Source of the DNA: a virus
Taxonomy: Duplodnaviria; Heunggongvirae; Uroviricota; Caudoviricetes
DNA length: 37,392 nt
Direction: 5' to 3' (one strand)
IMG/VR virus record: IMGVR_UViG_3300045996_000852
Coordinates: 128,001 to 165,392 of that record
Part shown: in pieces, positions 2,470 through 37,392 of the stretch
Position numbering within the stretch: the first letter of the stretch is position 1
How the letters are laid out: each line of letters begins with the position of its first letter
Program-made: the position numbers and the translations under genes
Notes under the pieces: generated by a model
Databases searched by the model: none
What the model was told of the DNA's origin: nothing
Seen by the model: only the letters and a program-made list of their open reading frames with translations

Positions 2470-2886
2470 TTATTGAAGTTTGTTAAGCAAATTGGTTAAT
2501 GAATCATTCATATTTTTACCTCTGTTGATATGTATAATTCTATTCCTCGATTCAAGTATCCTATTGAAATACTTCAATATATCCTTGAGAATAAATCGGT
2601 TAATAGAAATCATATATCCAAATGTATGATTATGAATCTCAATAATATTATCTTTGATAGTAATATTGATACCCAATCTATCATTCACTATGAATTTGTC
2701 ACCAGAGATAGGTGAGGGAAATAATTCTGAATCTTTCAGCCTCATGATTGATTTACAGATATTGTAAACTAACATATCTGTATTGTTTGCAGGATTGCGT
2801 TTTCTATGGTAGTTATTTCTACGATACCATAACTTCTTCATCTTGAATTTCAAACTGTTTATCATGAGTTGTAGTTTGGTTTGCAA
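2470..2886 (-). CDS. Hypothetical protein
   Basis: 138 aa ORF, start uncertain. Confidence 0.7.
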   Translation of the reverse strand: MQTKLQLMINSLKFKMKKLWYRRNNYHRKRNPANNTDMLVYNICKSIMRLKDSELFPSPISGDKFIVNDRLGINITIKDNIIEIHNHTFGYMISINRFILKDILKYFNRILESRNRIIHINRGKNMNDSLTNLLNKLQ

Positions 2887-2895
2887 ATATAGGAA

Positions 2896-3084
2896 CTATA
2901 AACCTAGTTCCAAATGTCTATTTTTCCAATACTCATGGTTCTTTGAGTAGTGTTGCTGAATTACATGCATGTTTTTATTGTAATACAGTCTTTCTTCATC
3001 AGTGAGGAGATTACCTTCCATAATAAGTTTATCTAATCTCCACATTTCTTTGAGTTTGTTGTTAGTTTCTTGGTCAATCGGCAT
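2896..3084 (-). CDS. Hypothetical protein
   Basis: 62 aa ORF, tightly packed in gene run. Confidence 0.65.
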   Translation of the reverse strand: MPIDQETNNKLKEMWRLDKLIMEGNLLTDEERLYYNKNMHVIQQHYSKNHEYWKNRHLELGL

Positions 3085-3127
3085 AGTAGTAAATTTAAAG
3101 GGCTATATTTCTATAGCCCAATGAATA

Positions 3128-3268
3128 TTAAGGTCTGTTGGTAAAGAAATACTTTGGATTGTTTGTAGGACAACTCTTCCTGTTGCATGATTGTGAAAAT
3201 ATTACAACGGCAAATAGTGTCATTACCAGTACTACATACTTCCAGTTGATGTTGAGGTTAATGCTCAT
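3128..3268 (-). CDS. Small lipoprotein-like peptide (46 aa, not in ORF track)
   Basis: MSINLNINWKYVVLVMTLFAVVIFSQSCNRKSCPTNNPKYFFTNRP; start overlaps the end of the upstream gene; followed by hairpin 3098-3120. Confidence 0.55.
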   Translation of the reverse strand: MSINLNINWKYVVLVMTLFAVVIFSQSCNRKSCPTNNPKYFFTNRP

Positions 3269-4433: not shown

Positions 4434-4708
4434 AATGAATAATTTATAATACAGAGAGGTCCACTATTCCTAGCAAATAGTGGAATCCATTCCATTATAG
4501 AACTTCTTTCCTCTCTGTATCACGGTTATAATTTATACAAATATATGAATAAGACAGTGTAGCCCCTGTAAATACAAGGGCTAGACTGAATCCTCATTTT
4601 AGACTAAACGATTGTTATTTCATATACTTGTGGTTTTAGACTATATGTTGTCTGCAAAGCAAAGGGCAAGCATGAGCAAAATGATTGCTATACCTTGATA
4701 TACTCTTT

Positions 4709-4999
4709 TCATATGAATAATAGTATTAAACAGGTTAAAGATAATATTCCACACACTATCATATCTCTCATCATAACTCTCCTTCGTCTTTGATACTCAA
4801 TATATATTGGTCTCCATATGTATGTGTGAATGAATTGACCAATGGCAAACAGGAGAATACAGAGTAATAGTAACCCTATAAAATGTTTGTCTGTAGTAAT
4901 GTACGTTTCGAATGCACCAAACATTCTTGCACCGAATATGATTGCCACAATACATGATAACCATGTAAAGGAAATAGAGACAATAGATAAGATTTTCAT
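4709..4999 (-). CDS. Membrane protein, 3 TM segments
   Basis: 96 aa hydrophobic ORF. Confidence 0.7.
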   Translation of the reverse strand: MKILSIVSISFTWLSCIVAIIFGARMFGAFETYITTDKHFIGLLLLCILLFAIGQFIHTYIWRPIYIEYQRRRRVMMRDMIVCGILSLTCLILLFI

Positions 5000-5304: not shown

Positions 5305-5465
5305 GAGAATGTGTTTTGTTTATTGTATAAACTCCACTCTCTCTATTTATTTTAGCATCTTAGGATAAGGTAGGATGGAGTGACACTGTTCAGTCACTCC
5401 CATGCTCTAGCCTCACATTGACAGGTATTTATCCTGTAATATCTACACCACAAATAAACGAACAG

Positions 5466-5660
5466 TTAGCGATACATAACTCTACTCAGGTCTTTAAATT
5501 TCCATTCACCACCATTTACCTGATAGTTGAATCTTGTACCTGAGCCATCTTCGAATTGAATAGCTGTAATACTTGGAGCTATTGTTGAGTCCTCGTATTC
5601 CATCTCTTCTATTCTCTGAAGAATAGTAATAGCCTGAATTAGTAACAGACATTTGTTCAT
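5466..5660 (-). CDS. Hypothetical protein
   Basis: 64 aa ORF. Confidence 0.65.
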   Translation of the reverse strand: MNKCLLLIQAITILQRIEEMEYEDSTIAPSITAIQFEDGSGTRFNYQVNGGEWKFKDLSRVMYR

Positions 5661-5670
5661 ATGTTAAGTA

Positions 5671-5976
5671 TTAGAATTGACAATTTTGTTTCCACCACTC
5701 CTGAAATGTAATAGGATTCTCCAACATATCAGACATCATTTTACCATCAGGAAACTTCCTATACAAACCTTTGGAAGTAGGAATACTGTAATTGGTTTGT
5801 AAACCAAATAGTTCTCCAATAGTAACAGTATCAAGCATGTCATTCTCCTCATTAACAACCAGTTCCCACTTATCTGACATGTCATGTTTGAATACACCAA
5901 TACAAATCTCTTGTATTTGTCTGAGACATGTACCTAATTGTCTCTCAATACCTTGGAATAAATCTAATCGTTTCAT
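5671..5976 (-). CDS. Hypothetical protein
   Basis: 101 aa ORF. Confidence 0.7.
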   Translation of the reverse strand: MKRLDLFQGIERQLGTCLRQIQEICIGVFKHDMSDKWELVVNEENDMLDTVTIGELFGLQTNYSIPTSKGLYRKFPDGKMMSDMLENPITFQEWWKQNCQF

Positions 5977-6004
5977 TTTGAGCAGTTTAGTAGTTAATAA
6001 AGAG

Positions 6005-6105: not shown

Positions 6106-6108
6106 TTG

Positions 6109-6181
6109 GGTGATATACCAGATTCGAACTGGTACGAAGACAACCACAATGTCTCATGCTGACCGTTACATTAATACCACC
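6109..6181 (-). tRNA. tRNA-His (GTG) with encoded G-1
   Basis: G-GTGGTAT...AGACA TT GTG GT TGTCT...ACCAG TTCGAAT CTGGT ATATCAC-C. Confidence 0.9.
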
Positions 6182-6388: not shown

Positions 6389-6389
6389 G

Positions 6390-6462
6390 GGTGCTGTAAA
6401 GGAATCGAACCTCTCTTTCAGGCAGAAAAAGCCTGTGTCCTAGCCGATAGACGAACAGCACC
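6390..6462 (-). tRNA. Atypical tRNA: Glu-like body, anticodon TTT, C37, G-1:C73
   Basis: G-GTGCTGT TC GTCT ATCGGCTA GGAC A CAGGC TTTTTCT GCCTG AAAG AGAGG TTCGATT CCTTT ACAGCAC-C. Confidence 0.8.
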
Positions 6463-6704: not shown

Positions 6705-7134
6705 TTGTTAATGTATTTAACAGTTAGTTAATCAATTCACGGTCAGAATAGACAATGATAACACTCCTCTCTGTAGTAACACAAATAGGTATAGTAATCA
6801 TCATCAGTATAGTAATAATATGTCTCATAGTACTTGTTTTTATTAGTTTTAGTATATATTGCAACAGCTTACCACATTTTACCACTTTCTCACACTCATC
6901 CCAAAGTCCCTACTGGTTCTCAGGTCACACCCTCATTCAACACATTTTATATAGAAATCCTCCAATAAAAGAAAAAAGAGGTCACACTGTCCTTGTGCAA
7001 CCTCTTGACATTCATAGAATTAACTTAGTACATCCTTTCGTACAGTTCATTCTCTTGTTCTGTTGTCATTTCTCTTGTCATGGTAGGCTATTTGAGCTTT
7101 GTTAATAGACAAACTATAACACTATGTTAATAGT

Positions 7135-7223
7135 TGTCCGATTGGGTTATTAAAAGTCCAATAATCCCGCAATAAATAGGAATTATTGGACCTACAATAA
7201 CATTTGATGTCCGATTGGGTTAT
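7135..7223. repeat. 16-bp direct repeat flanking an inverted repeat
   Basis: tgtccgattgggttat at 7135-7150 and 7208-7223; gtccaataat (7156-7165)/attattggac (7182-7191). Confidence 0.85.
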
Positions 7224-7224
7224 A

Positions 7225-7374
7225 CTAACCCTTTTCAGTAGCTTCTTTAGCTGCACTAAATGCCACAACTAGACCTACGAAGAGAATAATACCTGCCACA
7301 TATTTGATTACAGGATTCTCTACTTGGAATAATCCCCATGCTATGAAGATTAATAATATTGCTATTCCCCACAT
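7225..7374 (-). CDS. Small membrane protein (49 aa, not in ORF track)
   Basis: MWGIAILLIFIAWGLFQVENPVIKYVAGIILFVGLVVAFSAAKEATEKG. Confidence 0.6.
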   Translation of the reverse strand: MWGIAILLIFIAWGLFQVENPVIKYVAGIILFVGLVVAFSAAKEATEKG

Positions 7375-32782: not shown

Positions 32783-33256
32783 ATGTTAAAATACCTCCTG
32801 AACAAAGAAACTACAGTAATAGGGAAAATAAAGAATGTATTTGCAGGATTCACTTTCTGTTTACTATGGGTAACGTTTGTGAAGCTCCTTATTAATACTT
32901 TATATGGAGTCCCTATACTTCAAATAGACCCTGCTTTTCCACCCGGGATACCTTATATATTCTTTTGGGGAGTAATAGCAGCACCCTTATGGGAAGAAGC
33001 AGCATATAGATATTTCCCAATGAAGGTTGTACAAAAATTTGGTATGGAACTTCTAATGCCAGTAATGATATTAAGTTCTATTATTTTTGGATGGGGACAT
33101 GGACTTGGATTCATCTCTATACTAATTCAAGGGGTCTGTGGATTCATAATGAATTGTGTTTATGTAAAAAATGGAATGTCCTACTGGTCCTCTGTATCCT
33201 TACATGCTATGTGGAATTTTCAAGTAGAATTTGGATTACCTTATTTTTTAAATTAG
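32783..33256 (+). CDS. CPBP (CAAX/Abi) family intramembrane glutamic endopeptidase
   Basis: Motifs WEEAAYR (EExxxR), FGWGH (FxxxH), LHAMWN (HxxxN) in a multi-TM protein. Confidence 0.9.
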   Translation: MLKYLLNKETTVIGKIKNVFAGFTFCLLWVTFVKLLINTLYGVPILQIDPAFPPGIPYIFFWGVIAAPLWEEAAYRYFPMKVVQKFGMELLMPVMILSSIIFGWGHGLGFISILIQGVCGFIMNCVYVKNGMSYWSSVSLHAMWNFQVEFGLPYFLN

Positions 33257-33262
33257 TAAAAT

Positions 33263-33385
33263 ATGACACCTGAACAAATGGAAAAAGAGATCAAGAAGCT
33301 TTCAAAGAAGGTTTGCTGTCTCACTAAAATTATTAATGATAACAATTTGACTACCTCCACAACTACCACTACAACATCGGCTTAA
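33263..33385 (+). CDS. 40-aa peptide with CC and poly-Thr tail (not in ORF track)
   Basis: MTPEQMEKEIKKLSKKVCCLTKIINDNNLTTSTTTTTTSA, 6 nt after the CPBP stop. Confidence 0.7.
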   Translation: MTPEQMEKEIKKLSKKVCCLTKIINDNNLTTSTTTTTTSA

Positions 33386-33413
33386 AAATAATTTTTAAAA
33401 AGTTGCTCAAATA

Positions 33414-33445
33414 TTTGGTGGTTTGGAATAAAAGTTGTATTATTG
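33414..33445 (+). promoter_or_regulatory. Promoter of tRNA array 1
   Basis: TTTG-N20-TATTATTG, Bacteroidota -33/-7 geometry; near-identical copy at 34558-34589. Confidence 0.7.
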
Positions 33446-33452
33446 TATTGTC

Positions 33453-33545
33453 ATGAAAAAGAATCGTCAACATACGTGGTTTACCTTTACTCAGTGTCCG
33501 TTTGGATATTGTGAGGGTTGCCCTGTATGTACGATTATGAGATAA
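33453..33545 (+). CDS. Attenuator leader peptide 1 (30 aa)
   Basis: MKKNRQHTWFTFTQCPFGYCEGCPVCTIMR; codons 5-17 use only amino acids of the downstream tRNAs; contains antiterminator strand 33510-33519. Confidence 0.85.
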   Translation: MKKNRQHTWFTFTQCPFGYCEGCPVCTIMR

Positions 33546-33570
33546 ATATTTTCAAAGTTGTATACCTCAA

Positions 33571-33603
33571 GGAATCCTCACAGAAATGTGGGGATTTTTT
33601 GTT
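33571..33603 (+). terminator. Attenuator terminator 1
   Basis: aatcctcaca-gaaa-tgtggggatt-ttttgtt, ending 4 nt before tRNA-Pro. Confidence 0.9.
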
Positions 33604-33607
33604 ATAA

Positions 33608-33681
33608 CTAGTTGTAGTTCAGCCCGGTAGAACACTTGCTTTGGGAGCAAGGGGTCGTAGGTTCGAATCCTGCCAGCTAGA
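33608..33681 (+). tRNA. tRNA-Pro (TGG)
   Basis: Cloverleaf; CTTGC TT TGG GA GCAAG. Confidence 0.95.
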
Positions 33682-33743
33682 CAAAAGTCAATGTATATGT
33701 TTACAAGTTAACTTAAAAGTAAACTTATAAGTTGACGAAATAA

Positions 33744-33814
33744 GTCTCCGTGTCCGAGTGGTTAGGAAGAGGTCTGCAAAACCTTGCACACCAGTTCGAA
33801 TCTGGTCGGGGATT
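33744..33814 (+). tRNA. tRNA-Cys (GCA)
   Basis: GAGGT CT GCA AA ACCTT; U73. Confidence 0.95.
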
Positions 33815-33883
33815 CAAAAGATTGTTCCTTTAAAAAGGAAGACGAGTGAAAGTGGATAGCGGTCTCCACCAATCTTTTTATAA

Positions 33884-33956
33884 GCCGTGGTAGCTCAACT
33901 GGTAGAGCACCTGCCTTGTAAGCAGGGGGTTGGAAGTTCGATTCTTCTCCACGGCT
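33884..33956 (+). tRNA. tRNA-Thr (TGT)
   Basis: CCTGC CT TGT AA GCAGG. Confidence 0.95.
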
Positions 33957-34055
33957 CTTGGACTATTGTAAAAGATGGTCCCGGAAGGTTGCCGAATGAA
34001 ATAACCTCTCCTTATGGGAGTATCCGAAGTGCGGATAGTGAAAAGTCGGAGCTAA

Positions 34056-34128
34056 GGTGCAGTAGCATAGCTGGTCTGTGCAGGGGACTGAAAATCCCAA
34101 GGTGTGAGTTCGACCCTCACCTGTACCA
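34056..34128 (+). tRNA. tRNA-Phe (GAA)
   Basis: GGGA CT GAA AA TCCC. Confidence 0.92.
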
Positions 34129-34136
34129 CTTAATAT

Positions 34137-34207
34137 ACGTGTGTGGTGAAATGGTATCATGACGGTCTCCAAAACCGTTGTTGGGAGTTCGAATCTCTCC
34201 ATACGTG
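34137..34207 (+). tRNA. tRNA-Trp (CCA)
   Basis: ACGGT CT CCA AA ACCGT; G73. Confidence 0.95.
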
Positions 34208-34267
34208 CTGAATGTTGCATATTTTACACATTTCCTGTATTTTTGTGTATTATATGAAACATTATAT

Positions 34268-34338
34268 TTCTCTCTGGTGTAATGGTAACATATCAGATTT
34301 TGGCTCTGATGTTCAAGGTTCGACCCCTTGGGGAGAAA
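34268..34338 (+). tRNA. tRNA-Gln (TTG)
   Basis: TCAGA TT TTG GC TCTGA; U1-A72. Confidence 0.95.
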
Positions 34339-34340
34339 CT

Positions 34341-34411
34341 GTGGCTGTAGCTTAATGGTAAAGTGGTAGTTTGTGGCACTACTGATGGGAGTTCGATTCT
34401 CCTCAGTCACC
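34341..34411 (+). tRNA. tRNA-His (GTG), T rather than G at -1
   Basis: GTAGT TT GTG GC ACTAC; C73. Confidence 0.93.
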
Positions 34412-34453
34412 CAACATGTACTAATTTATTACAAATTAGTAGATATTAGTAAG

Positions 34454-34526
34454 GCACTTTTAGTTTAACTGGATAGAATATGGGGCTACGGACCCCAAGG
34501 TACTTGTTCGAATCAGGTAAGGTGCT
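34454..34526 (+). tRNA. tRNA-Arg (ACG)
   Basis: TGGGG CT ACG GA CCCCA. Confidence 0.93.
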
Positions 34527-34557
34527 CAAAAATATTTTTAAAAAATATGAAGAAAAA

Positions 34558-34589
34558 TTTGGTAGTTTGGCATATTCTTCGTATTATTG
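34558..34589 (+). promoter_or_regulatory. Promoter of tRNA array 2
   Basis: TTTG-N20-TATTATTG, same as 33414-33445. Confidence 0.7.
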
Positions 34590-34619
34590 TATTGTAATTA
34601 AAAACAGACAAAGCAACAA

Positions 34620-34715
34620 ATGTTACATTCTTATATGATAGTGGATAATGGGATTAACCTAAGAGGTGCGGAGAAATCTGCCTCAGGGTTCCTATTGTCT
34701 GATATTATCGTATAA
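34620..34715 (+). CDS. Attenuator leader peptide 2 (31 aa)
   Basis: MLHSYMIVDNGINLRGAEKSASGFLLSDIIV; contains gcctcagggttc (34680-34691), perfectly complementary to the terminator 5' arm. Confidence 0.85.
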   Translation: MLHSYMIVDNGINLRGAEKSASGFLLSDIIV

Positions 34716-34738
34716 GATAAATATAGATCAGATTAAAA

Positions 34739-34776
34739 GAACCCTGAGGCTCCTAAGCTTCGGGGTTTTTTGTTTT
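34739..34776 (+). terminator. Attenuator terminator 2
   Basis: aaccctgaggct-ccta-agcttcggggtt-ttttgtttt, ending 2 nt before tRNA-Lys. Confidence 0.9.
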
Positions 34777-34778
34777 AT

Positions 34779-34851
34779 ACCCTCGGAGCTTATGTGGACA
34801 AGCTGCTCACTTTTAATGAGAGGATAGTAGGTTCGAATCCTATCGGGGGTA
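34779..34851 (+). tRNA. tRNA-Lys (TTT)
   Basis: CTCA CT TTT AA TGAG; G at position 8. Confidence 0.9.
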
Positions 34852-34889
34852 CATATGAAACAATTCGTGATTTGCGGATTGCGGATTAT

Positions 34890-34962
34890 GCTCCTATAGC
34901 TTAATCGGTAGAGTACCTGACTCTTAATCAGGGGGTTCTGAGTTCGAGTCTCAGTGGGAGCA
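34890..34962 (+). tRNA. tRNA-Lys (CTT)
   Basis: CCTGA CT CTT AA TCAGG. Confidence 0.95.
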
Positions 34963-35003
34963 CTTTAACATTTACTTAGTTCTTATAGTTCTTATATTTA
35001 GAT

Positions 35004-35177
35004 ATGAGAATCTATATAGGAATCAGAAAACCAAGTAAAGATAGAAAAGGAAACATTGGAACTACTTGGGAAGAACAAGTTAATGGTAGTTACATATGTA
35101 AAGAAACAAGAAAAGTGCTTAAACAATGGCAAATTGAAAATGATTTTAGATTAGGTTATTTAGAAATAGTTCCTTAA
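35004..35177 (+). CDS. Hypothetical protein (57 aa, not in ORF track) overlapping tRNA-Val
   Basis: MRIYIGIRKPSKDRKGNIGTTWEEQVNGSYICKETRKVLKQWQIENDFRLGYLEIVP. Confidence 0.55.
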   Translation: MRIYIGIRKPSKDRKGNIGTTWEEQVNGSYICKETRKVLKQWQIENDFRLGYLEIVP

Positions 35178-35240
35178 CTCAGTTGGTAGAGTGTCATCTT
35201 TACATGGTGAAAGTCGTCAGTTCGAGCCTGACAGGAACTA
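35168..35240 (+). tRNA. tRNA-Val (TAC)
   Basis: TCATC TT TAC AT GGTGA. Confidence 0.95.
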
Positions 35241-35332
35241 CAAAAGGGTGCTGTGAATAATGAAGTTAATAAACAGGACTGCCTCGTTTCTGGAATGGTC
35301 GTTGGGTAGCTGATGACATCCTTACTTCACTT

Positions 35333-35404
35333 GGTCCCATAGTTAAATGGATATAACTTCTGCCTTCTAAGCAGATATTCGTGGTTCGATTCCACGTGGG
35401 ACTA
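35333..35404 (+). tRNA. tRNA-Arg (TCT)
   Basis: TCTGC CT TCT AA GCAGA. Confidence 0.95.
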
Positions 35405-35414
35405 CAAATAATAT

Positions 35415-35488
35415 TCCCCTGAAGCTTAAGTGGTATAAGCTACTGCCTGTTAAGCAGAAGATAGTTGGTTCGAGTCCAATTGGGGGAG
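35415..35488 (+). tRNA. tRNA-Asn (GTT)
   Basis: CTGC CT GTT AA GCAG; G73; A at position 8. Confidence 0.92.
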
Positions 35489-35505
35489 CATAAAAAAAAC
35501 CAAAC

Positions 35506-35787
35506 ATGGATAATATATTTTCCAAAGGTGATAAATATGTTCACTTTAAAGAAGACGGTACTATTGTAACAGGAGAAGTTAAATCAGTAGTATTAAGTCA
35601 GGTTTCGGATTTAACTGGATTTTGTTATGAGGTGATAAATCTTGAAACACAAGATAATAAAATATTATCAATAGGTCAGACAAAAGGAAGGATTCATAAA
35701 TTAAATCATACTATGACTCCCGAAGAGAAAGATAAATTTAATAGGGGTGAATTTGTAGATAATACTCCTTGTAGAAGAGAAAATTAA
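35506..35787 (+). CDS. Hypothetical protein inside tRNA array
   Basis: 93 aa, SH3/KOW-like start FSKGDKYVHF. Confidence 0.7.
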   Translation: MDNIFSKGDKYVHFKEDGTIVTGEVKSVVLSQVSDLTGFCYEVINLETQDNKILSIGQTKGRIHKLNHTMTPEEKDKFNRGEFVDNTPCRREN

Positions 35788-35790
35788 TAT

Positions 35791-35862
35791 TGCGAGGTAG
35801 AGCAGCGGTAGCTCGGAAGGCTCATAACCTTTAGGTCGGGGGTTCGATTCCCTCCCTCGCTA
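35791..35862 (+). tRNA. Initiator-type tRNA-Met (CAT)
   Basis: T1xT72 mismatch, A11-T24 pair, GAAGG CT CAT AA CCTTT. Confidence 0.88.
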
Positions 35863-35869
35863 CAAATAT

Positions 35870-35942
35870 TGTGAGGTGCTTGTAACGGTAACTGGTCAGG
35901 CTCATATCCTGAACGATGTCGGTTCGAATCCGACTCTCGCAA
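35870..35942 (+). tRNA. tRNA with CAT anticodon (Met or Ile2), weak D stem
   Basis: TCAGG CT CAT AT CCTGA; T arm GTCGG TTCGAAT CCGAC. Confidence 0.8.
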
Positions 35943-36040
35943 CATGAGATTTTTACTGCTTATGATATTCTTTATTTCCTGTAGAAATGGAGAGTATAAA
36001 CCAAATCACATAGATGGTGTCTATGTAAAAAATAAACACA

Positions 36041-36526
36041 ATGGAAAAGTACTTCAAAACAGTGGAAGGAAAGTATGTGAATATTGTGAAGCATACTTTG
36101 GAACAACTAAATAAGTGGGATGATTTGAGAATCTATGTTGGTACAGACTCTCAAAGTGAAAGTGATTTTACAATGTATGCTACTACAATCTGTTTTAGGT
36201 ATGGTAATAGAGGTGCTCACTATATTGTATTCAAGGAAAAAGTTCCAAGAGTTCGTGTAGAATACATGAGATTATACGATGAAGGTTTAAGAACATTAGC
36301 TGCTTCTAAATTCTTGAATGATGAATTACAAATATTCCCATTCCTAGAGTTTGACTATGCTGATGTTAAGAAAACTGTTTCTTCAAACTTAGTTAGTGTA
36401 TTTAAAGGTTATCAGAATGCAAGATTCAAGTCAGAAGAAATGATTGCTACAAGAGCAGCAAATCATGAGTGTAGAAAGGAAAGTAATATGTTCAATCTTG
36501 AAGAAGCATTGAAACAAGCAGCTTAA
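36041..36526 (+). CDS. RNase H-like YkuK (DUF458) family protein
   Basis: IYVGTDSQ...YATTICF...GAHYI...RLYDE...ATRAAN motifs. Confidence 0.85.
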   Translation: MEKYFKTVEGKYVNIVKHTLEQLNKWDDLRIYVGTDSQSESDFTMYATTICFRYGNRGAHYIVFKEKVPRVRVEYMRLYDEGLRTLAASKFLNDELQIFPFLEFDYADVKKTVSSNLVSVFKGYQNARFKSEEMIATRAANHECRKESNMFNLEEALKQAA

Positions 36527-36638
36527 TACCGTATCGGGTTTTGTGGTATAAGGAGACCCTGCCTTATTGTCGAAAGACGGATAAGAAAAACCACTTTAAA
36601 TATCTCCCATAGAAGGTGCTTGCGGTGACCTTCTCTAA

Positions 36639-36710
36639 GCAGGAATGGTGTCAATGGTAACACACAAGACTTCCACTCTTGGGTTGAGAGTTCGAATCTC
36701 TTTTCCTGCT
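36639..36710 (+). tRNA. tRNA-Gly (TCC)
   Basis: CAAGA CT TCC AC TCTTG; U73. Confidence 0.95.
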
Positions 36711-36799
36711 CAGGTCAGTTTGATTGTTCTGCGTGTAGTTAAAAACAATCTTGTAGTCGGATGGTAACTCCCCAAAATGTTATCGGATGACTACTCCTT

Positions 36800-36872
36800 G
36801 CAGTAGTAGCTCAATTGGTAGAGTGCCACCTTGCCAAGGTGGAAGTTGACAGTTCGAATCTGTTCTACTGCT
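36800..36872 (+). tRNA. tRNA-Gly (GCC)
   Basis: CCACC TT GCC AA GGTGG; U73. Confidence 0.95.
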
Positions 36873-36992
36873 CAATTAACTTATGACAGTGAAACTGTCG
36901 GGGTCCGTAAGTATCTACGTAACCATCCGTAGTGAACGTCCGGGTGATGATGTCCAGACCCTTGAGGACTTATCAACCTATGTTAATTATCT

Positions 36993-37065
36993 GCCCCTAT
37001 CGTCTAGTGGTCTAGGATACACGACTTTCTATCGAGTGACACGGGTTCGAATCCCGTTGGGGGTA
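36993..37065 (+). tRNA. tRNA-Glu (TTC)
   Basis: CACGA CT TTC TA TCGAG (one stem mismatch, T37). Confidence 0.9.
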
Positions 37066-37070
37066 CATTT

Positions 37071-37142
37071 CGAGGTATGGTTGAATGGTACAATGCCGGA
37101 TTGTCAATCCGTGTGGTACGGGTTCGAATCCCGTTATCTCGG
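37071..37142 (+). tRNA. tRNA-Asp (GTC)
   Basis: CGGA TT GTC AA TCCG; G73. Confidence 0.92.
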
Positions 37143-37149
37143 CTTAATC

Positions 37150-37233
37150 GTCCTACTCCTCCTGTGGAATCTATCCACGAAGCAACTGAGGCTAGGTTGT
37201 GATACAGTAACCACTGTAGGGAGGACGTAGGAC
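37150..37233 (+). ncRNA. Candidate four-way-junction RNA
   Basis: Long closing stem gtcctac-tcctcct/gggagga-c-gtaggac with three hairpin arms. Confidence 0.55.
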
Positions 37234-37238
37234 AAAAT

Positions 37239-37311
37239 AGACTCTTAGCTCAGTTGGTAGAGCAAGATGCTCATAACATCGAGGTCACCAGTTCGAATCT
37301 GGTAGAGTCAA
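37239..37311 (+). tRNA. tRNA with CAT anticodon (Ile2 or elongator Met)
   Basis: GATG CT CAT AA CATC; A1xA72. Confidence 0.88.
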
Positions 37312-37316
37312 CACAA

Positions 37317-37390
37317 GTTGGTATAGCTCAATTGGTTAGAGCACCACGCTGATACCGTGGAGGTTGAAAGTTCGAGTCTTTCTATCAACA
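37317..37390 (+). tRNA. tRNA-Ile (GAT)
   Basis: CCACG CT GAT AC CGTGG. Confidence 0.95.
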
Positions 37391-37392
37391 CA

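Follow-up and report, generated by a model that had tools for sequence, protein, structure and literature searches.

To our knowledge, the known targets of leader-peptide attenuation are the genes of amino-acid biosynthesis and a few synthetase genes. In the multivalent attenuators of Escherichia coli and Salmonella (thr, ilvGMEDA and ilvBN), as well as in those of trp, his, leu and pheA, a short open reading frame (ORF) rich in regulatory codons is combined with an RNA that pairs as segments 1:2, 2:3 or 3:4, and with a terminator placed before the regulated genes; in the multivalent cases, one leader senses several amino acids. An arrangement of the same kind is found in the final 37.4 kb of the 165,392-bp record of an uncultured phage (IMG/VR record IMGVR_UViG_3300045996_000852), and this whole stretch of 37,392 nucleotides is referred to here as the window. 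Positions 34524-34778 of the window comprise a promoter-like block, a leader ORF, an antiterminator and a terminator, which, as judged from the sequence, probably constitute a ribosome-mediated transcription attenuator of the tRNA genes downstream. This element, attenuator 2 or unit 2, is one of three. Approximately 27 tRNA genes, all on the + strand, extend from window position 33608 across the ends of the record to genome position 1473 (called with ARAGORN and Rfam), and this array is split into three blocks, each with a leader ORF, an antiterminator and a terminator ahead of it.

The differences from the attenuators of amino-acid operons concern both the target and the leader. The genes controlled here would be tRNA genes, whereas theirs encode biosynthetic enzymes; leaders 1 and 2 contain roughly a single codon for each of eight to ten isotypes, whereas the leaders of amino-acid operons use runs of one or two; and, again unlike those systems, the stop codon lies after segment 2 and the element is phage-borne, apparently in phages of Bacteroidota. 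The pheST attenuator of E. coli, with its pheM leader, is closer in that a component of the translation apparatus is controlled with tRNA charging as the signal, but pheST encodes the aminoacyl-tRNA synthetase for one amino acid rather than tRNAs. T-box riboswitches are similar in that a choice between terminator and antiterminator reports the state of a specific tRNA, but they bind the uncharged tRNA directly, need neither a ribosome nor an ORF, and regulate synthetase, transporter and biosynthesis genes. No T-box in the window was matched by Rfam, either at the gathering score or at E-values up to 10. Beyond tRNA, no Rfam family reached its gathering score; the best scores, to His_leader, Thr_leader, Phe_leader, the trpB motif, the PyrR site and L10_leader, were 17-25 bits against gathering scores of 44-59 (E-values of 0.7-8). 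The sub-threshold hits to the Phe, Thr and His leaders and the PyrR site, at 19-25 bits, reflect a terminator-like shape only, and the element resembles the attenuators of amino-acid operons neither in sequence nor by Rfam model (19-25 bits against gathering scores of 49-55).

The nearest functional analogue found, by resemblance of role, is the trn operon of Anabaena sp. PCC 7120, whose 26 tRNA genes are reported to be repressed by TrcR and induced under translational stress (PMC10272220). In both cases a spare tRNA array would be kept off and turned on when translation is stressed, although the Anabaena operon is controlled at its promoter by TrcR, a ribbon-helix-helix protein repressor, and neither a leader peptide nor attenuation nor a terminator is mentioned in the text of that paper (PMC10272220). 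Leader-peptide control of tRNA genes was not found by a full-text literature search, the coverage of which did not extend to subscription-only papers. The mechanism would be of a known kind, of which the new aspects are the tRNA gene target and the sampler-type leaders.

Architecture and predicted switching of attenuator 2

Attenuator 2 occupies the 251-nt gap between the end of tRNA-Arg(acg) at 34527 and the start of tRNA-Lys(ttt) at 34779, and all of its parts are on the + strand. The promoter-like block (34524-34604), which is 78% identical over 81 nt to positions 33380-33460 ahead of the first tRNA block, contains TTTG at 34558-34561, followed after a 20-nt spacer by TATTATTG at 34582-34589. 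We take this arrangement to resemble the Bacteroidota -33/-7 promoter consensus, and transcription would start near 34595-34598. The leader ORF (34620-34715; 31 codons and a stop, MLHSYMIVDNGINLRGAEKSASGFLLSDIIV) was recognised from the ORF list, its homologues and the stall scan described below. It has no Shine-Dalgarno sequence, and its start codon is 6 nt from the foot of the hairpin formed by segments 1 and 2.

Three pairings can be drawn in this region. Segments 1:2 form an 89-nt hairpin (34629-34717; -38.7 kcal/mol, z -6.4), the anti-antiterminator, in which the 5' arm is the sensing portion of the leader ORF and the 3' arm is the antiterminator strand, which is thereby sequestered; the stop codon of the leader is located past segment 2, at the foot of this hairpin. 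Segments 2:3 form the antiterminator (34680-34750; -33.7 kcal/mol, z -7.3), which is mutually exclusive with the 3:4 pairing and the arms of which, 34680-34703 and 34727-34750, were recovered by a repeat search as 24 nt with 83% complementarity. Segments 3:4 form an intrinsic terminator (34736-34776; -21.6 kcal/mol, z -4.9), with a stem of 16 pairs, 6 of them G-C, at 34736-34771, a CCTA loop and a subsequent T run that stops 3 nt short of tRNA-Lys (34779). As the gap between terminator and tRNA is too short for a promoter, the first tRNA would be made by read-through only.

Most of this pairing had been set out in an earlier reading of the same sequence (the original prediction), and it stands. 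The perfect 12-bp complement is present, with gcctcagggttc at 34680-34691 being the exact reverse complement of gaaccctgaggc at 34739-34750, and the helix is extended by tctgat (34698-34703) pairing with atcaga (34727-34732). The proposed folding of the ORF on itself was recovered within 1 nt of the earlier coordinates, as 34629-34642 with 34704-34717 and 34643-34653 with 34690-34700, with the hairpin tip (aacc/ggtt and gcgga-gaaa-tctgc) forming as claimed. In the folding check, the 1:2, 2:3 and 3:4 structures were each more stable than all 200 shuffles (0/200 as stable in every case), and the entire attenuator 2 region folds at -62.5 kcal/mol (z = -7.6), with 0/200 shuffles equally stable.

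The order of these energies suggests how the element would be set. The combination of 1:2 and 3:4 (about -60 kcal/mol) is more stable than 2:3, which is itself more stable than 3:4 alone, and in 16 of the 18 units compared across phages the energy of the 2:3 domain is lower than that of 3:4. Therefore termination would be the default, with the antiterminator winning once segment 1 is occupied, a hierarchy that is classical for leader-peptide attenuators. This was explored with a stall scan, in which the leader was folded, at equilibrium only, with the 29 nt of a ribosome footprint forced single-stranded around each A-site codon. With no ribosome, the probability of the terminator was 0.96. Placing the A site on codons 7-16 (IVDNGINLRG) lowered this probability to 0.00-0.43, and from codon 17 to the stop (codons 17-32) it was 0.87-0.96. 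Hence the sensing codons of leader 2 are predicted to be approximately codons 6-16 (MIVDNGINLRG), and a switching window was present in 7/7 unit-2 sequences.

Sister units, codon matching and covariation in related phages

Unit 1 (33380-33607), the attenuator 1 of the original prediction, is directly ahead of tRNA-Pro and has the same design, again on the + strand throughout. Its promoter-like block (33380-33460), of which that of unit 2 is a repeat, is followed by a leader ORF of 30 codons (33453-33545; MKKNRQHTWFTFTQCPFGYCEGCPVCTIMR), recognised as an ORF with a run of tRNA isotypes. Folding of 33462-33606 gives a 75-nt 1:2 hairpin (33462-33536), an antiterminator strand at about 33509-33523, and a terminator stem (33569-33600) with a T run to 33606, the energies being -32.0, -28.6 and -16.1 kcal/mol for 1:2, 2:3 and 3:4, respectively. 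The T runs of units 1 and 2 end 1-3 nt before the first tRNA of their blocks, which leaves no space for a promoter in either unit. The contention that the two leaders are unrelated while their logic is identical was borne out, as no alignment was obtained between the transcribed leaders of units 1 and 2, which share the promoter-like block only. The 38-nt core of this block is present in exactly two copies, both in the window and in the whole genome, and an A/T-rich palindrome within the block is common to the two units. In relatives, the second promoter box reads TATATTTG. When viral contigs were searched for the promoter pattern, there were 0 matches.

From the codon match of leader 1, a third unit was predicted ahead of the Leu, Ser and Tyr tRNAs, which were not yet accounted for, and was then located. 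It lies outside the window at genome 520-666 (L168:520-666), where a leader ORF (520-612; MNQVLSYYSSLSLLLQNKENGNSMSEEQIG) and a terminator precede tRNA-Leu at 667. As in units 1 and 2, the leader ORF is part of a long 1:2 hairpin, the 3' arm of which can pair with the 5' arm of the terminator instead. Unlike those units, however, unit 3 of this phage lacks a separate promoter-like block, and its leader starts by a one-base stop/start overlap at the end of a 50-codon ORF.

Read from its sequence, each leader draws largely on the amino acids, and in the case of Arg on the codon box, that the tRNAs of its own block serve. Block 1 (33608-34527, + strand; ARAGORN and Rfam) encodes Pro, Cys, Thr, Phe, Trp, Gln, His and Arg(acg), and codons 5-17 of leader 1 are drawn solely from these eight isotypes. 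Given the background frequency of this set (0.267), such a run of 13 was reached by 0/200,000, 0/300,000 and 0/100,000 random peptides, and of the 399 ATG ORFs of 25-40 codons actually present in the genome, leader 1 alone attains it. Block 2 (34779-37391, + strand; ARAGORN and Rfam) encodes Lys(ttt), Lys(ctt), Val, Arg(tct), Asn, Met, Met, Gly, Gly, Glu, Asp, Met and Ile, together with embedded small ORFs, and runs on beyond the end of the window according to whole-genome ARAGORN calls; in relatives, leader 2 has runs of 13-15 codons from its own set (p 0.001-0.007) in 5/7 phages. Block 3, outside the window, encodes Leu, Leu, Leu, Ser, Ser and Tyr from genome 667, which we take to be exactly the isotypes with a long variable arm (class II), and leader 3 contains an 11-codon Leu/Ser/Tyr run that 0/300,000 random peptides equalled.

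The same tendency is seen in the aggregate over seven phages, for which isotype sets were taken from ARAGORN at a lowered threshold, spurious calls included. The codons served by block 1, block 2, block 3 or none of these numbered 121, 71.5, 18.5 and 5 for leader 1; 13.5, 129, 43.5 and 12 for leader 2; and 22.5, 60, 78.5 and 13 for leader 3. Arg is the sole amino acid with tRNAs in two blocks, and here the leaders separate the codon boxes. Leader 1 uses CGT, CGC or CGA for its sensing Arg in 6/6 phages with a block-1 tRNA-Arg(ACG), CGN making up just 11.4% of the Arg codons in this genome, and leader 2 uses AGA for its core Arg in 6/6 phages with tRNA-Arg(UCU). In one relative, L147, there is no Arg tRNA within the 7-kb stretch, and an Arg codon is absent from both sensing cores.

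The relatives were found using the RNase-H-like ORF inside the array and DNA patterns derived from the leaders. Six further lineages have syntenic arrays (L011/L164; L146/L098/L166; L147/L158; L153; L161/L162; and L165), all three units being in matching places in 6/6 of them, and two additional fragments (L155 and L157) contain homologous units. Six of these contigs (L153, L155, L157, L158, L161 and L162) were among the 16 matches of a longer pattern in metagenomes; the remaining 10/16 were chance matches inside ordinary protein genes. The loci returned by two other pattern searches were likewise mostly chance: of 15 from the first, only L024, which is the L011 record, matched either unit by BLAST, and of 119 from the second, only L098 matched both units, L051 having one 22-nt match. 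No tRNA was called on the plus strand of L167.

Nine distinct unit-2 sequences were obtained, each with an open homologous leader frame of 26-35 codons, and the leaders of all three units are open for 22-46 codons in every relative. The homologues of leader 2 share the pattern M-x4-MIVD[NR]...[GA][AGNT][ENR][EKR]K. Within the invariant stretch ATGATAGTGGATA, third codon positions are conserved as well, which points to constraint at the level of RNA. Insertions and deletions in the first, sensing half of leader 2 are of 3 or 6 nt, and therefore preserve the frame. As a separate observation, a mini-ORF or peptide segment with the motif GGCGCG(K/G), for example MKLYKGGCGCGKPKK, recurs beside or fused to leaders, at 1661-1708 of oriented L162, at 2480-2542 of oriented L165, at the N-terminus of leader 1 in L011, and at the C-terminus of leader 2 in L146.

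Covariation was counted over seven unit-2 sequences (L165 and L157 were left out). In a full-length MAFFT alignment of unit 2 the 2:3 arms were one column out of register in some rows, and therefore the counts were made on a sub-region alignment of segments 2-3. The RNAalifold consensus of this alignment is a 10-bp antiterminator helix, in which 5/10 pairs change on both sides and 67/70 cells pair. Its covariation score was 0.538, compared with 0.282 +/- 0.056 in column shuffles, of which 0/500 reached 0.538, and the score was at most 0.19 when the 3' partner was slid by 1-3 columns. Across 18 units, cognate 2:3 duplexes had a mean energy of -16.3 kcal/mol, versus -9.4 kcal/mol for mismatched phage or unit pairs (0/20,000 permutations were as low). 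In every unit, the part of the leader that pairs best with the 5' arm of the terminator is in the 3' arm of the 1:2 hairpin, and each of the seven unit-2 duplexes was beaten by no more than 1/200 shuffles. The RNAalifold consensus of terminator 2 has compensatory changes in 8/22 pairs. The open frame, the covarying antiterminator and terminator, and the textbook order of energies thus support the interpretation of the element as a leader-peptide attenuator with which the analysis began.

Counter-evidence and rival explanations

Several observations nevertheless weigh against an attenuator matched to its tRNAs. The switching window was found in just 3/6 unit-1 and 1/5 unit-3 sequences; units in which folding at equilibrium gives no such window would need kinetic control, with the antiterminator forming first, as is understood for classical attenuators with weak 2:3 helices. 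It had been cautioned at the outset that a ribosome stalled at the Glu and Lys codons 18-19 of leader 2 might cover the antiterminator, and the mask scan agrees: with the A site there, segment 2 is covered and the terminator forms, and so Glu18 and Lys19 are outside the predicted sensing window. Since the first two gated tRNAs are both Lys, the position of Lys19 outside the window means that Lys shortage would not be sensed on this model. Nor is the codon match of leader 2 significant in the window itself, where 17/30 codons are of block-2 isotypes: p is approximately 0.07 for the run of 8, approximately 0.07 for the best window (12/14), and approximately 0.11 for the presence of all 9 types. 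This leader also has His, Phe, Ser, Tyr and Leu codons, which are served by other blocks, and two Ala codons, yet there is no supported tRNA-Ala in this phage, six relatives having one. In L153, the own-set run of leader 2 has a p value of 0.2. In L147 and L153, the match of leader 1 is lost when default ARAGORN calls are used (runs of 3), and returns only when lowered-threshold tRNAs are admitted, along with one tRNA called by Rfam only, the GAA anticodon of which was read by eye, and a tRNA in the Gln position called as Lys(ttt). Furthermore, the relatives are homologous and share one common ancestor, such that repeated counts are not independent events. Finally, block 2 contains small ORFs, some behind promoter-like sequences, and with these embedded in the block its distal tRNAs may be independent of the attenuator.

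Alternative explanations have to be weighed against the same evidence. The element could be a small-RNA gene or a processing element, producing a structured and terminated transcript of approximately 180 nt with an untranslated ORF and a hairpin serving stability or RNase III-type processing, while the tRNAs are expressed through constitutive leak-through. The very stable hairpins would suit such a role, as would the missing Shine-Dalgarno sequence and the proximity of the start codon to the hairpin foot, and phage tRNA clusters do hold small stable RNAs, as in T4. However, this would leave unexplained the three unrelated leaders that are open for 22-46 codons in every relative, the frame-preserving indels, the spelling of the leaders in the isotypes of their own blocks with Arg split between CGN and AGA, and the covariation of segment 2 with segment 3, making it an unlikely account. 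If instead the ORFs are translated for the sake of their products, they might encode small functional peptides, of which the Cys-rich leader 1 could be an example, equipped with their own terminators; the likeness to tRNA sets would then be a by-product, and read-through unregulated. Recognisable motifs are indeed kept across phages, namely QCPFG..CEG.C.VC in leader 1, MIVD...EK in leader 2 and SYYSSLSLL in leader 3. Yet the differences between phages in the core of leader 1 are partly radical in chemistry, aligned positions being occupied, for instance, by Trp, Thr, Phe, Pro and Gln, while the run stays within the eight-isotype set (in 5/7 phages with default tRNA calls, and 7/7 with lowered-threshold calls), which is hard to reconcile with selection on peptide chemistry. 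The invariance of the conserved leader 2 stretch at third codon positions is also at odds with such selection, and we regard peptides of this sort as an improbable explanation.

The terminators might also be overridden by something other than a stalled ribosome at a specific codon, whether a phage or host antitermination protein of the lambda-Q-like or NusG-like type, or any translating ribosome, and the switch would then gauge translation capacity as a whole rather than particular tRNAs. A promoter followed by a short terminated transcript is reminiscent of late-gene control in lambdoid phages, and the promoter-like block with its A/T-rich palindrome, conserved between units 1 and 2, could bind a factor. 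Such a switch would neither need nor explain the codon matching, the separation of the Arg boxes or the covarying 2:3 helix, and the units have no shared sequence downstream of their promoters, and hence we give it little credence. It could lastly be argued that AT-rich DNA supplies many short ORFs and hairpins, and that the promoter and terminator scans were only modestly enriched relative to shuffles, such that a chance inverted repeat happens to lie beside an ordinary terminator. Set against fold z-scores of -5 to -7.6 with 0/200 shuffles as stable, conservation and covariation of the unit in relatives, and two sister units of the same design, the likelihood of such a coincidence is very small indeed. 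The preferred explanation of the locus consequently remains leader-peptide attenuation.

Genomic setting, proposed circuit and implications

The record to which the window belongs has 127-bp direct terminal repeats and a G+C content of 35%. Terminase, portal and head-like proteins are encoded on the + strand at 8.4-33.3 kb of the window. The terminase shares approximately 26% identity with the terminases from crAss-like, Flavobacterium, Cellulophaga and Bacteroides phages, and therefore a Bacteroidota host is likely. Among GenBank phages, megablast with the tRNA region matched short tRNA stretches only, and the major-head-like protein had no match. A search for sequencing runs that cover 33300-35300 yielded no RNA data set among five runs, the best of which was a soil metagenome.

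Several further genes lie in or near the array. An ORF for a 161-aa RNase-H-like protein (36041-36526; Pfam PF04308, E 3e-8) is situated between Met and Gly tRNAs, and is kept at the equivalent position of the array in every relative seen. Just 5' of unit 1 is an ORF for a CPBP/Rce1-like intramembrane protease (32783-33256; Pfam PF02517, E 5e-14), with an apparent counterpart in the matching position of L146. A Pfam scan of the small ORFs neighbouring the leaders found no family match, the leaders themselves being too short and left out of that scan. In L011, ORFs resembling HNH endonucleases by motifs read by eye are found between tRNA genes (2854-3267, 4499-4846, 5414-6004 and 7030-7332), one of which is preceded by a copy of the shared promoter-like block.

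Some tRNA and tRNA-like genes also merit description. Far from the array, two lone tRNA genes on the minus strand of the window, His(gtg) at 6108-6180 and Lys(ttt) at 6389-6461, are of isotypes already present in it. Just past the end of the window, at genome 131-205 and immediately after tRNA-Ile, is a tRNA-like sequence of low score that has a G3-U70 acceptor pair; relatives carry tRNA-Ala in this place, and the sequence may be a decayed tRNA-Ala. The idea that it is a hidden tRNA-Ala was considered and rejected, as ARAGORN called it at a lowered threshold only, and then as Leu-caa, and Rfam gave no support. At 3194-3264 of oriented L153, the tRNA in the position of the relatives' tRNA-Gln has the anticodon loop tttttgg and is called as Lys(ttt) by ARAGORN, which may represent an anticodon-loop insertion or a change of identity. 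Elsewhere in the genome, a putative tmRNA with the tag peptide AEEELELV was called by ARAGORN on the minus strand (114582-115039, outside the window).

The mechanism that we infer depends on translation of the leader, on read-through that follows from stalling, and on a physiological trigger. Transcription would start approximately 25 nt 5' of the leader ATG, and translation of the nascent leader by a ribosome would begin. With all cognate tRNAs plentiful, this ribosome would continue as far as the stop codon beside the hairpin foot, whereupon either the 1:2 hairpin would re-form or segment 2 would be covered, allowing 3:4 to form and RNA polymerase to halt before tRNA-Lys. Were the ribosome instead to stall in segment 1 at a codon whose tRNA is short (approximately codons 6-16, MIVDNGINLRG), segment 2 would be free to pair with segment 3 as it emerges; this 2:3 pairing would block the terminator, and the polymerase would proceed into the tRNA genes. 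The outcome would be negative feedback on the supply of phage tRNAs, block by block. Scarcity of tRNAs during infection could arise from host tRNA decay, cleavage by defence nucleases, or mismatched codon usage. In one report, tRNA cleavage is described as a phage-defence strategy that is countered by phage tRNAs (PMC12409363). It is possible, and we suggest only tentatively, that the three codon-matched attenuators act together as a tRNA-shortage sensor and resupply circuit, which would detect depleted host tRNAs, such as those cut by anticodon nucleases, and transcribe the matching spares, as an inducible counter-defence that consists only of RNA and the ribosome.

All the parts of attenuator 2 are contained within approximately 250 nt, making it an easily tested design. 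If the proposed mechanism is true, the leaders would be compact natural reporters of decoding speed for defined sets of codons, and the system would constitute the first case of tRNA supply under cis-acting feedback control. It would also explain how large phage tRNA arrays can be expressed on demand, and would thereby provide a handle on the debate over why phages carry tRNAs, whether for codon usage, host shut-off or escape from tRNA-cleaving defence.

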